From assembly GCA_964016885.1 (NCBI GenBank), contig OZ024743.1:370574001-370638000 (forward strand): DNA of 64,000 nt, read 5' to 3'. The stretch comes from Eledone cirrhosa (taxonomy: Eukaryota). The notes beneath the pieces were generated by a model, which searched no databases, was not told the origin of the DNA, and saw only the letters and a list, made by a program, of their open reading frames with translations. This document shows, one piece after another, positions 10,236 to 39,330 of this stretch (positions within the stretch are counted from its first letter, which is position 1; the number at the start of each line of letters is the position of its first letter). The translations under genes were made by a program, and so were the position numbers.

Positions 10236-10441
10236 GATATATATATATATGCATATATATATATATATATATATATATATATATATTGTTATACTTTGGG
10301 AGGGTCATGTTGCCAATAAGAAACACACGCACCAGTTGATTTCACTTCAATTTAATTTATTATATATTTATAAATTTACAAATTTATAAATTTCTGGTTG
10401 GTTGGTTGGTTCCACAACCAGATAGTTGTTTATATATATAT

Positions 10442-10486
10442 AGTCATAGTTCTTTCGTCACACACTCTGTGACCTCTTCAGTGACT
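10442..10486 (-). ncRNA. Type I hammerhead ribozyme motif in pLTR
   Basis: Reverse complement of 17647-17691. Confidence 0.8.
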
Positions 10487-10769
10487 GGGGATTTCTTTCT
10501 TCGTTTCTGTGCCTTTCCTTTCTTCTATCCTACGCCATTTTGTTTGTGTGTGGGTTGCGTGCTCAGTTTGCGCATGCGCCACATCCGGGTGTCTGTGTGT
10601 GTTTGTGTTCATTTTTCTATTTTTCTATTTATATTTTTCTATTTGTTTGTTTATTTATTTATTTATTGTTGGTTGGTTGTTTGTTCTATGTGTGTGTGTG
10701 TTTTCATTTTGTGTGTGTTTTCAATTGTAAGTTGTTTGTTTTATGTGTGTGTGTGTTTTCATTTTGTCC

Positions 10770-13700
10770 TTAATTGTAAGTTGTGATGTTGCTGTTCCAC
10801 TCATATTTTCTATTTAATTTTGGTTTTAATTCTTTTATGCTTACTGCCTCTGTAATTTGCCTAAACATTGCGTCTTTCTTGTGTGTGGATTCTATTTTTA
10901 TTTCTATGCTCTCTAACTTACCCCTGTGTTCTATCTTAGCATGTTGGTAGAGCACAGATGATTCTTTATTATCTTGGAGGTCTCGCCAGTGTTCATTTAT
11001 TCGTTCCCCTATACTACGAGCTGTCTCACCTATGTACACTATATTTTTGTTTCTACATTGTCCTTCAGTACATCTTATGCTATATACTACATTTCTAGTT
11101 TTACAGTTAATATGGGGGCTTATTTTACAGGTTATACATTTCTTATCTATACATGAGGGTCTTTGGAACGGGTATGTCTTGCTAATAAGTGTTTTTACGG
11201 AGGTACCAGGTCTTTCTACTATCTTAATATTGAGATTATGTTTCTTTAGGGCCCTTCTAAATTTGTAGGCTAGTTCGCTTCTAGGGGTTGTATTGATGAA
11301 CATTACGCTCTGGTATTTATTGCTATCATACCATGAGTTTATTCTATTGGCCTTGTTCTTAGTTCTTTCTATTCTATTCCAAAATTTGCTCCTATACAAG
11401 GGGCAGGTCCCATTTATGTCATTATTTACCATTTTTTCCCATTTGGTTCTGGCTCCTTTATACACTCTGATTCTATCTCTCTGATTGTAGCCAGAGAACT
11501 GCATACGGTGGATGAAATGTTGTATGTGTCTCTCTAGTTCTTCGGGGTTGCACATGCGGGACACATTTCTCATCACCCGTACCAAATCCGCAATCAGTAT
11601 GTTGATTTTGGTATGGTCCGAAATGGCCGAGTTTCGGTGGATCAGATGTTTGGAAGTCATGGGTTTGGCATAATGGGAATGGAGGATTTGTTTTTGGTTG
11701 TTAATTGTATCTAACCAGAGCTCTGTGTCTAGTACAGGTAATCGATGGTTGGGGTGTCTACTTGGGTAGTCTATAGTAACTCTAATGCTCTGGTGGATGG
11801 AGTTTGCTATTTGCTGGATGCTTTCCATTGTGTTTTTCTCTAGTTCCTGACTGTTCTTTAGTGGGGGTGTCTTAACTACGATGTTTATATCATCTACGTA
11901 GCGGGAGTACATTATCAGGGTTAAGCTGTCTTCTAATTGTTCATTAAGTTTTTGTTTAAGTCTACTGTCCCACCATACCATGAATAAGTTAGCTATGTCG
12001 CCTGCAATGCTAACACCAATGGCTGCTCCTTCCTCTTGGGCATATGTTTTACCATTAAATTTGAACATATGTTCCTTAAGGGTTAATTTTATGCTGGCCC
12101 CTACTGCATGTGCAATCATTTTCTTCAGTTCATCGTGGTTTTCGGGTGTCCGTATGGCTCTGGTCCACCCGTTCCATCTATCTGTGTGGGTTTTCTTGGC
12201 CATTGAGGTGATGGTAGGTGGTCTGCCTCTTGCTGGTCTTGTAGGGCACAGGTTGCTAAGGTCATAAGTGTCTAGGTAACTATTACTATGGGTAAGCTTA
12301 AGTAGAAGTCCCAGCTCACTGGTATCAATCCCACGGAACTCAACCTTGCTCTCGCTGATCATTTCGACGCATTTCTCCACAGCAAAATCCACGTCAATAG
12401 ATGGATACAGGGACACAACATCCATACTGCCTATTATGCAGCTTGTTAGGTCCCCAGATCGGTTACCCGCGCCGATTCTGCTGAGGAGGTCCTCCGTGCT
12501 GTCACACACATCTGGGGACATCTCAATGATGGGGCGTATGATCAGGGAGAGGAAGTAGGACAGTCTGTAGTTACTAGCAATGTTAGCCCCACAGACTGGC
12601 CGTGTTGGTGGTCCCGCGACAGGGTCCCAGCCCGTTTTATGGTCTTTTCGAAGCCCATACAACGCCGGCACGTCATTGTTCCAGGCCTGGAAGTTGTTGG
12701 CAGTCCTTTTGTTGGGCTGCATTATATTTGTCCACATCACCATATGGGCATTGAGGGTTTTTTCTCTATCCTCATGCTCCTGTGGTGTTACCTCTCTTGT
12801 GTTAGTGATGTGGGGTTGCATTGCCTGGATGTAGTTTGGCAGGCTGTCAACCGACATTCTGCCAGACTTGTCTGTTGGAAAGCATGCTATCTCTCCATTA
12901 CGCGAGCGCTGCATGAGCTTACGCAAGCCATTTGCAGATTCTTCTCCCAGTTGCTGAGCCTCTATTCTATTATGCTTCTTGCTATACTGTTCTATAATAT
13001 TTCTAAGTTCGGATTTAGCTATACTAAATTGTGCTTCTGTTTGTTCATCGACCTGCGACGGTAACTGTGTGCGTTTGTTAAATGGCAAAGTCGTGGCGTG
13101 GACTCGTCGTAGGTCGAATGATTTATCGGAGGGGTTATAAAACGGAGAGTTCCAGGCTGCTGCTTTATGTGTACTAGTGCTATTGTTATTGTTAGTTGTG
13201 TTGTTTCTATTTCCACCAACAGCAGCAGCCTCAGCTTCATGGTTGTTTCTATGTCTCTCATAATTACTCCTGTCTCTTTCCACTGGCTCAATGTTGTTAT
13301 CTACCCTATTTTGTGTGTCTGTGTGTTCGTCTTGGTTATTCTCTTTGTCCTTAGTCTCCCATCTCCTTTTCCTTTTAATCCTATTACTTTCTCTTATTTC
13401 TCTGATTTCTGTGCTACTGTCATTACTTGTTTTCTGTGTGTGTGTGTTTGTTAAGATTGTGGTGGTGGTGAGAGGCATTGAATGCGTGTGTGTTGTTGTT
13501 GTTGATGTGTGTTGTTGTTGATGTGTGTTGTTGTTGTCTCCGTGTGTGTGTGTGTTATCGTTGTTGTGTGTGTTGTTATTGTTGTTTGTGTTTGCGTGTC
13601 TGTTGTTGTATCTGGGTATGTTGCTATTGTTGTTGTTGTTGATGTGTGTGTTGTTGTTATTGTTGTCTCCGTGTGTGTTGTTATTGTTGTTTGTGTCTGC

Positions 13701-36525: not shown

Positions 36526-37426
36526 TGTATATACATATATATATATGTATATATATATATATACATATATATATACATATATATATATACATATATATAC
36601 ATATACATATACATATATATATATACATAAACACATATATATATACATAAACATATATATATATATATATATATATATATATATATATACATATACATAT
36701 ATATATATATATATATATATATATATACATATACATATATATATATATATATATATACATATATATATATATATATATATATATATATATATATATATAT
36801 ATACATATACATATATATATATATATATACATATATATATATATATATATACATATATATACATATATATATATACATATATATATATATAAATATATAT
36901 ATACATATATATACATATATATATATATACATATATATATATATATATATACATATACATATATATATATACATATACACATATATATATACATATACAC
37001 ATATACATATACACATATATATATATACATATACACATATACATACACAATATATATATACATATACATGTACATATATATATATATATACATATATATA
37101 TATATATATATATATACATATATATATATACATATATATATATATATATATATATATATATATATATATATATACATATATATATATATATATACATATA
37201 TATATATATATATATACATATATATATATATATATACATATATATATATATATACATATATATATATATATATATACATATATATATATATATATATACA
37301 TATATATATATATATATACATATATATATATATACATATATATATATACATATATATATATATATACATATATACATACATATATATATATATATATATA
37401 TATATATATATATATACATATATATA
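36526..37426. repeat. Long (TA)n/(TACA)n microsatellite
   Basis: Direct inspection. Confidence 0.95.
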
Positions 37427-38059
37427 GGAACTTGTTCCTATTACCCACTCTACTACCCTATGTATTGAGTACTTTGGTGCGTTATGGTCCACCTGGTTCC
37501 TTACCACATTTCTTTCGTTATACATATATATATATATATATATATATATATAAATTATCGAGAATCGCATTTCGGCTCACGAAATAACGAAAAACAACCT
37601 CCGAGATGTGTGTCAAGTGCTCAATGATTCAGATGAACCAGAGCTATAACAAACGTTAAAGGCCAAACACACTGAGACGATGGTTAAACAATCATTCGCA
37701 TAGCCAAAAAAACGATCAAGTAATTCGGGTCAACAAATCAAAAATATCTGTGATTGAAAATTTACCCGGACCCCTGGAAGGTTGGTAAAATCCAGCATTT
37801 TGGTTTCTGCGGCTCCTCAATCAAATACATTGGTGTATAGTGAAGGCGGGAAATCGTAGACTAGCCGTCTTTGTCGTTCTATTTAGTTGCTAAAAATCTT
37901 TTTTGGTAGCGACCATAGACGGCTAGTCTACGATTTCTCGCCTTCACTATACACCAATGTATTTACGGGTCACTTTCACGACCTTTCAGACCTGTATTAG
38001 TTGGAGTGAGGTCATATATTTTGTTGTTCCTGGGGTTTTTAACCCTAGGACAGGAAAAT

Positions 38060-38140
38060 GCTTCTCTGATGATCGTTGCTTTTCCATTAATATCCTCGTG
38101 ATATTTAATGTTTTGCAAAGTGAAACTGTACAGTTAGGGC
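38060..38140 (+). ncRNA. Hammerhead motif with long bulged stem II
   Basis: ttct CTGATGA ..ttgc..cattaa tatc..gata ttaatg..gcaa.. GAAA ctgtacag TT aggg. Confidence 0.6.
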
Positions 38141-39330
38141 CATTTGAATAGGTAAATATTTATATTATATTTTTTAATTTTGATTAATTTTAATTGTATA
38201 TTAATTTTGATTTATTTTGAAAAATTGGTTGAATTTTACTTGTTCTGCTTATCTTGATATGTATATATATATGTATATGGAGGGTGACTTTGGACATCCT
38301 GCAGGACTAAAAACAAAACCTGTCAAAGGGCAAAGGAGCTCTTAAGAGTCAATGGCCATCCAAAATCACCGGGAGAGATGACCCCTTAGCCTTTGTCAAG
38401 GCAGAATTCTAGGAGAAGGAAAACTCTGATATAACACCTGCAACCCTGATGGTATCCAATGATGTTGACTTGTTCTTCTTTTTGGTAAATATCATCTTGG
38501 TTAAGAGAGTGGGACTGGCTTTGTGCAGTGCCTTTGCTCACTATAAAAGCTTCACGGCACAGGCTTTGCTTTATATCTGGAGATCTCTCTGCACTTGTCG
38601 TCGGGTGGTGCCATGGGCCCGGCACTGTGTGTCGGTGGTTGTCAGAAGTGTGGTGTTTGTGCCAGAGTTTTCAAGTCGCTGGCTGGACTAGGGGGTCACA
38701 CTCGTTCAGCGCATCCGTAGGGGTTCTCCTACATGGATATAAAGTAGTGGCCGTACTCGAAAACGAGTTGGCAGCCAACATATATATATATATATATATA
38801 TATATAAATGAAAGGTATAGAAAGTATTGTAGCAAGAAGCCAACAGTATTCCATAATATATATATATATATACACACACATATATATATATATATATATA
38901 TATATATATATATATATATATATATATATATATATATATATATATATATATATATATATATATATATATATATATATACATACATACATATACATATATA
39001 TATATATGTATCAACAGAGTTTTGCAAATAGTTATAAATTTGCACATAGCATAACTAGGCTGTATAACGACCGTGGAAACATTTGTAAGCACACAGAATA
39101 AATTACCTTTTTATGATGTCTACCTGTTATTATTCATTCTTTATATATATATATATATATATATATATATATATATATATATATATATATTGGCAACATG
39201 ACCCTCCCAAAGTATAACAATATATATATATATATATATAGGTGTGTGTGTGTGTGTGTGTGTGTGTGTGTGTGTGTGTGTGTGTGTGTGTGTGTGTGTG
39301 TGTGTGTGTGTGTGTGTGTGTGTGTGTGTG

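Follow-up and report, generated by a model that had tools for sequence, protein, structure and literature searches.

The stretch analysed here, which we call the window, comprises 64,000 nucleotides (nt) of the Eledone cirrhosa genome (assembly GCA_964016885.1, contig OZ024743.1, positions 370,574,001 to 370,638,000, forward strand). It is animal DNA in which (TA)n arrays are abundant, and our main finding concerns the way in which Penelope-like elements (PLEs) end in such arrays. In all ten inverted PLE-type units found in (TA)n, one arm stops at a short end and the other arm runs on into a tail (10/10), and at the short end the element overlaps the (TA)n sequence. In the family that we call A, both ends are fixed nucleotides inside the start of the open reading frame (ORF). 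We consider it about an even bet that the two ends are internal start sites of the reverse transcriptase (RT) which are positioned by protein, and at which a patch of 2-5 nt of alternating A and U likely pairs with the nicked (TA)n primer.

The family A insertion lies between a (TA)n target at 10237..10286 and a (TA)n run at 17905..17997. Its full-length arm (10283..14915, minus strand) consists of a 5' pseudo-long terminal repeat (pLTR), the ORF, a 3' untranslated region and a 3' pLTR, and terminates at the short end, which we call site 1. The inverted, 5'-truncated arm (14913..17905, plus strand) terminates at site 2. The tail, from site 1 to site 2, occupies 17851..17905 (plus), which is 55 nt if the count begins at the 3' edge of the overlap at site 1. 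The arms meet in a 3-nt overlap and are more than 99.7% alike (3 substitutions and 2 small indels over about 2940 nt). A 36-nt copy at 39188..39223 (plus), identical to A, ends at site 1 as well. Since it has (TA)n on its 5' side too, the (TA)n target there predates the insertion, and any added repeats are therefore indistinguishable from the target; its 5' end is a repair-type joint with a 3-nt overlap. Directly left of the target microsatellite of A there is a near-perfect 41-nt hairpin (10191-10231).

The end points can be read from a 12-nt end motif that occurs six times in the window. Three occurrences run into TA repeats as short ends (10285 minus, 39221 plus, 35580 minus), two continue to tail ends (17904 and 31220), and the sixth, at 14598 on the minus strand, is the internal junction of 5' pLTR and ORF, which supplies the continuation. 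An earlier note on this DNA had reported the same five end points, and they are real; it had listed them as ends of copies. Since 10286 and 17904 belong to a single insertion, as its two arms, there were four events. Counted from the ATG, the fixed ends are at ORF nt +22..26 (site 1) and +80/81 (site 2). Site 1 overlaps the ATAT at +23..+26 (14596..14599, minus, in the internal copy that shows the continuation), a perfect match of 4 nt in families A and B. Site 2 (+81..+86; 14536..14541, minus) matches (TA)n in register at 5 of 6 nt and includes an ATAT at +83..+86. The copy ending at 17904 leaves the element at +80/+81, 2 nt before this ATAT, and there is a mismatch at +82. The suggestion that an ATAT marks both end points thus holds at site 1, in A and in B, and fails in the strict sense at site 2. 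Similarly, it is correct that two families share the end points, in that the same nucleotides are used in A and B, while the site-2 ATAT is seen in A only: in the window there are no continuations past site 2 for B (which is absent beyond +81), C, D, G, H or I.

Family B is represented by two single-arm copies. B1 (30777..31220, plus) ends at site 2 and has no TA run on its 5' side; B2 (35578..36104, minus) ends at site 1. Around the ends A and B1 are identical in 66 of 82 alignment columns (80%), and, allowing for a 1-nt insertion in the B1 tail, site 2 follows codon 27 in both, the nucleotide and the TA register being identical. Between hammerhead and ATG, B2 is about 90 nt longer than B1; the segment missing in B1 (31120-31135 versus 35620-35710) lies upstream of the ATG between two near-identical 10-nt direct repeats.

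The pLTR of A holds 8-9 codons of the ORF, and the tail extends this to 27. A 5/6 in-register match such as that at site 2 is given by 2 of 240 nearby position-register pairs, both of which are this junction, and it is the best 6-nt TA match within 60 nt on either side. The 3849-nt ORF contains 34 TA runs of at least 4 nt; three are in the first 300 nt, and two of these three are at the ends. That both ends of A fall within 2 nt of such a run, in register, has P=0.001-0.005, by a criterion set after seeing the data. As to the mismatch, of the 10 relatives that can be aligned there, 4 have Tyr and 2 have Phe at residue 28 (by eye), an indirect hint that the RNA of B may have U at +82 and pair at that position.

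A further regularity is the combination of ends within units. A scan of 53 segments between TA runs flagged ten as self-inverted, and in seven of these, namely C1, C3, C4, D, G2, H and I, the two ends of the unit differ; the three with equal ends were rejected as units, one being inside A and two being degenerate TA. Four further unequal units (A, C2, G1 and G3) were read by eye. With I set aside, as its identity as a PLE is uncertain, one obtains the ten units with one short-end arm and one tail arm each. An even-odds free choice of end by each arm would give this pattern with a probability of 2^-10, about 0.001. C1 and C2 may not be independent, and the G family is classed as PLE-like only from its architecture. 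One end of each kind in every unit means that the two ends are not interchangeable.

The left arm has the short end and the right arm the tail in C1 (20063..20492, with hammerheads; 5-nt overlap, 90-nt tail), C2 (20775..20960; 90-nt tail), D (48598..49109, with hammerheads; 2-nt overlap, 99-nt tail), G1 (37428..37517; a few nt of left arm at the short end) and G3 (52119..52254). The orientation is opposite in C3 (34256..34720; tail of about 85 nt, short end with 2-nt overlap, 5/6), C4 (40771..41201; tail of about 87 nt, 1-nt overlap), G2 (40556..40744; 79-nt tail, 3-nt overlap) and H (44925..48570), a Hydra-type PLE with a 90-nt tail on its left arm, a 4-nt overlap at the short end of its long right arm, and RT and endonuclease (EN) fragments at 45961-47593. 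Tails thus measure about 79-99 nt in units other than A. Among single-arm copies with an assignable site, three of four end at site 1 (39188, B2 and the copy at 34050-34205), B1 being the one at site 2. Of 24 entries in the Hydra table of PMC8557442, 10 have consensus ends at 5-22 nt beyond the hammerhead window, 9 at 83-128 nt and 5 elsewhere, by hand arithmetic; this is weak outside support for the two-end pattern. Elements in the window are also chained via shared TA runs (17905-21290, 40745-40770, 48567-48597), namely A, a Hydra-type copy and C1; C2 and I; G2 and C4; H and D. Such chains are consistent with repeated insertion into the same microsatellites.

For the overlap with (TA)n, the continuation past site 1 was taken for each inverted unit from its tail arm. 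Perfect overlaps are 5 nt in C1, 4 nt in A, B and H, 3 nt in G2, 2 nt in C3 and D, and 1 nt in C4 and I. Their sum, 26, compares with 11.0 expected for random position and register (P=0.008). C2, G1, G3 and the copies at 34050-34205 and 39188 were left out of this calculation as repeats of counted families, while I was included in spite of its uncertain identity. One unit per family, with random register, gives P=0.006-0.048. If one assumes an unseen A where the tails of C1-C3 end, every junction is compatible with a run whose first letter is T, which makes a null with fixed T-register reasonable. Under this null P is 0.004-0.037 with A and 0.018-0.115 when A is omitted; capping overlaps at 4 nt, a later choice, gives P=0.00008-0.023 (0.001-0.023 without A). 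In our opinion the enrichment of overlap at site 1, which extends over several families, is suggestive and modest.

The hammerhead motif does not serve as a ruler in A and B, where we rejected this idea: the distance from core to end is about 170 nt in A and 229 nt in B2, at the same site 1. In Hydra-type and C/D/E/F ends it is about 42-68 nt; families E and F are represented by single-arm hammerhead-bearing ends at 33148, 51843 and 53621 (plus), with 56-63 nt from core to TA run. A stem-loop shared by the start sites was likewise rejected as a general feature, since seven of eight stretches have z=-0.12 to -1.89 against shuffles and only the tail of D stands out (z=-3.98); no stable fold was seen at the start sites of A (z=-0.25). 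The motif itself, of minimal type I, was found by pattern scan in the pLTR of A at 17647..17691 (plus), with a predicted cut after 17686. On the minus strand its core starts at 14794 and 10481, so that each pLTR of A has one, and stems I and II form in folding. There is no hammerhead among the Rfam matches listed (150 of 162 rows), and the microRNA matches obtained there were rejected as noise from TA runs.

The mechanism that we favour would begin with the GIY-YIG domain nicking both strands of a (TA)n run. One 3'-OH would then prime at site 1 and the other at site 2, on template RNA that would be uncut at the hammerhead, or cut and re-ligated, and would reach past the pLTR into the ORF's first part. 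Finally, the two cDNAs would be joined via short microhomology, which would leave an inverted unit with a tail on one arm. Pairing would fine-tune or assist a start that is placed by the ribonucleoprotein. The steps are much like those of L1 twin priming, in which the second nick primes internally and leaves an inverted 5' part. Intact hammerheads lie within both arms of A, and the tail arm is 3 kb long, well beyond the 325-nt pLTR; the template would thus be a tandem read-through RNA, two RNAs or a circle. Circular templates have been proposed in PMC4209133, and circles are discussed for retrozymes in PMC7761336; a retrozyme preprint (10.64898/2026.07.22.740005), in the part available, adds nothing on priming. 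The earlier note had also proposed internal priming on a read-through RNA, in which it is likely right, and a Poseidon PLE provides a precedent in vitro (PMC11167929). With regard to primer length, four paired nt can prime L1, and compensated terminal mismatches are tolerated (PMC3649969).

It is tempting to go further and to speculate that EN-bearing PLEs that target (TA)n use telomerase-style pairing at two fixed AU patches, one for each nicked strand, that in A this is aided by the 65-residue insert at the IFD position described below, in an undescribed lineage, and that the RT may reiterate the AU patch and so lengthen the host (TA)n. We hold this extended proposal to be rather unlikely. 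The term "telomerase-like", which had been applied to the priming before, holds as an analogy only.

Several results weigh against the pairing component of the mechanism we favour. In the sole in vitro study of a PLE, start sites are not homologous to the cut DNA (PMC11167929). Site 2 can be assessed in just one of 11 units, A, where the perfect overlap is 1 nt (P=0.56), and at site 1 the overlap of C4 and I is just as short. The 3-nt overlaps at repair-type joints (the inversion joint of A and the 5' end of the 39188 copy) match the lengths seen at site 1. If the null is allowed the better of two registers, the sum of 26 compares with 19.7 (P=0.14, all nine units), and family sets give P=0.07-0.28. 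Moreover, the ATAT runs at the ends of A are Asn-Ile codons and Asn8 is common in relatives, so that coding constraint could supply site 1. Much of this would be expected if the ribonucleoprotein alone fixed both starts with no pairing at all, the ATATs being a by-product of AT-rich sequence and of Asn-Ile codons; the large number of TA runs in the ORF and the mismatch at +82 agree with that explanation too. On the other side, the opening 300 nt of the ORF contain only three such runs, and the ends of A coincide with two of them, in register; the enrichment also survives removal of A under some nulls. We regard starts fixed without pairing as rather unlikely.

A different explanation would take site 1 to be no start at all, but a cut of the element's own cDNA by a TA-preferring EN, or a microhomology repair joint, made as the integration intermediate is resolved. 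Craig et al. indeed ascribe the tail to EN-mediated resolution (PMC8557442). This would account for a TA-like site 1 and for a single tail per unit, and the repair-type joints of the window show that 3-nt overlaps arise in that way too. However, in A, H and G3 it is the site-1 arm that has the greater upstream reach, which excludes a simple fold-back from the tail arm in these units, three of the four single-arm copies with a known site end at site 1, and both ends of the tail are RT starts in vitro (PMC11167929). We find resolution by EN or repair improbable.

In our view the same degree of improbability attaches to the possibility that the ends are inherited. A donor transcript would read into flanking (TA)n and the nick would anneal to a long (UA)n, and the new copy would stop at the donor's own end, so that AUAU would have mattered only when each end was first established. 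It is true that all 3' ends abut (TA)n and recur to the nucleotide, that the mismatched site 2 of A would then need no internal pairing, and that read-through into flanking simple repeats has been proposed for A. vaga Penelopes (PMC3846280). Yet inheritance does not by itself explain one tail per unit in 10/10, and interruptions in the flanking TA runs are not shared among C copies or among G copies (by eye).

The strong form of the idea in the earlier note, that annealing of (TA)n to AUAU selects the end point, is largely refuted and very improbable: although both ends of A coincide with ATAT runs, and Athena and Terminon elements pair with telomere overhangs (PMC6431247), longer TA runs go unused (12 and 7 nt in the pLTR of A, 9 nt in B, C3, C4, D and H), a mismatch sits at or beside the primer terminus at A's long end (+82), and arms free to use either AUAU site would not produce the one-short, one-tail pattern in every unit, all of which speaks against annealing as what chooses the site.

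The ORF of A (10770..14621, minus) is uninterrupted and encodes 1283 amino acids (aa), with YVDD at aa 908-911 in the RT core and a YIGET motif in the C-terminal GIY-YIG domain. An Asn-rich low-complexity insert at about 13250-13900 (minus) is similar to inserts of that kind in A. vaga Penelopes. A single ORF with RT followed by C-terminal GIY-YIG, pLTRs with hammerhead, an inverted 5'-truncated copy and a one-ended tail are all properties of PLEs with C-terminal EN. An Octopus vulgaris protein with 67% identity is the best and sole closely related named match. Pfam matched none of five frames of the window, A included; among 25 aligned members, RVT_1 was matched in 7 and GIY-YIG in 5. A PDB profile search returned, at E<0.001, only two bacterial defence RTs. 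For the N-terminus there were no relatives among 287 short candidates, and a representative search gave 18.

Set beside the rows of Fig. S2 in PMC8557442, A has the CX2-5CxxC linker of the Neptune and Nematis clades, as CX4CxxC (C1157, C1162, C1165, C1173), and CCHH-type residues (C1184, C1189, H1211, H1227), both conserved. Neptune and Nematis are expected to have no insertion between RT3 and RT4, whereas the RT3-RT4 spacing of A is 128 aa (aa 734-862), with about 65 extra residues at the position of the telomerase IFD. The spacing is 119-131 aa in 38 of 40 measurable relatives (of 55 matches) and 58 aa in the other two. As far as alignment can tell, this is an insertion at the IFD position in an element with C-terminal EN, and A and the relatives that carry it possibly form an undescribed C-terminal-EN lineage. 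No such insert is present in the Neptune and Nematis rows of Fig. S1 of PMC8557442, which in the parts available reports IFDs only for elements with N-terminal EN and for some Coprina; three motifs of A were sought in the accessible part of its supplement and none was found. Membership of A in Naiad/Chlamys is ruled out by the C-terminal EN and the hammerhead motif, and the Hydra clade was rejected as its home.

To the Hydra clade, on the other hand, we assign H and a PLE at 17994-20022 (plus), which is 5'-truncated at the Tyr codon of its YRDD motif, and this codon merges with the (TA)n at the right end of A. Both have the linker, the divergent RT4, no IFD (RT3-RT4 spacing is 61 aa), a hammerhead and a (TA)n target. 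The CxCX5C linker is intact in the frame at 18183-19676 and degenerate in H; the RT4 of H resembles the Hydra rows. The hammerhead cores are variant, as near 19932.

Among the remaining contents of the window are two decayed Helitron-like Rep/helicase regions at 23500-30780, which we presume to be such from motifs in their translations, and decayed frames at 950-3860 and 55590-57910, which we take to be non-LTR RT-like and of two other kinds. A dispersed SINE-like repeat of about 190 nt occurs at 3950-4150, 7061-7329, 22023-22317, 39792-40065, 45229-45415 and 59160-59357; several copies have a TA or ATT run at their end, one is inserted in H's tail arm and interrupts it, and two face each other across a TA run at 22092-22139. 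A 5S rRNA match is found at 61504-61624 (minus; 40.8 bits, above the Rfam gathering score). The segments 37823-37964 and 38107-38279, compared with 52517-52650, show an internal inverted repeat and a related AT-rich fragment between TA runs.

With regard to known systems, the two fixed ends inside the start of the ORF are the published PLE "tail". In an A. vaga Penelope the first 12 codons lie within the pLTR, and an optional tail on one inverted arm extends this to 22 (PMC3846280). PLE tails of 30-40 bp, often at one end only, and (TA)n targeting are described by Craig et al. (PMC8557442). In the in vitro work of Frangieh et al. the tail was bounded by two internal RT starts, nicking and extension took place on both strands, and cleavage by the hammerhead was not required (PMC11167929). 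Their element, Poseidon_Ac (PAc) of Anolis carolinensis, resembles A in its two fixed ends in the ORF start with the tail between them, in a pLTR hammerhead that needs no cut, and in its AT-rich target. PAc starts at +111..118 in an AC-rich stem-loop without homology to the cut DNA, whereas the starts of A at +22..26 and +80/81 overlap (TA)n; the tails in the window are also longer, at 55-99 nt as against 30-40. With Neptune and Nematis (PMC8557442) A shares domain order, linker, CCHH-type residues, hammerhead, inverted 5'-truncated arm and microsatellite target, and it is unlike them in its RT3-RT4 region, by a comparison of motifs. The linker of CxCX5C type, divergent RT4, hammerhead and (TA)n target of the Hydra clade (for instance Hydra-1_Obim of Octopus bimaculoides) recur in H and in the copy at 17994-20022; the available parts of PMC8557442 hold no description of a one-short, one-tail pattern or of target overlap for Hydra.

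Priming that is aided by a short RNA complementary to a repetitive DNA 3' end would be a feature in common with Athena, Coprina, Terminon and telomerase, and PLEs lacking EN do pair to telomeric overhangs (PMC6431247). Athena, Coprina and Terminon have no EN, carry full repeat units beside the hammerhead and attach to telomeres; here the overlap is 1-5 nt and lies about 42-230 nt from the hammerhead core. Priming of the Athena/Terminon type was rejected for A, in which EN is present and no end falls at the 12-nt TA run beside the hammerhead. Priming by L1 takes place on poly(A), with a second site that varies; in the PLE units described here the two sites are constant, and the same sequence is covered by both arms. 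That four paired nt suffice would be a point of likeness with L1 (PMC3649969).

The two ends as such were thus already known. What is new is that ten units each have one short and one tail arm, and that the short end overlaps (TA)n; we found no report of an overlap between PLE start site and target, or of a strict one-of-each count, in a literature search that was short on subscription papers. PLE priming, the preference for microsatellites and the origin of the one-sided tail are named as open questions in PMC8557442, and the strict combination of one short and one tail arm constrains models of the integration intermediate. With its uninterrupted ORF and nearly identical arms, family A is a ready substrate for a test of pairing. 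If PLEs that target (TA)n do pair, they would form a bridge between the anole element studied in vitro and the telomere-pairing Athena and Terminon elements.

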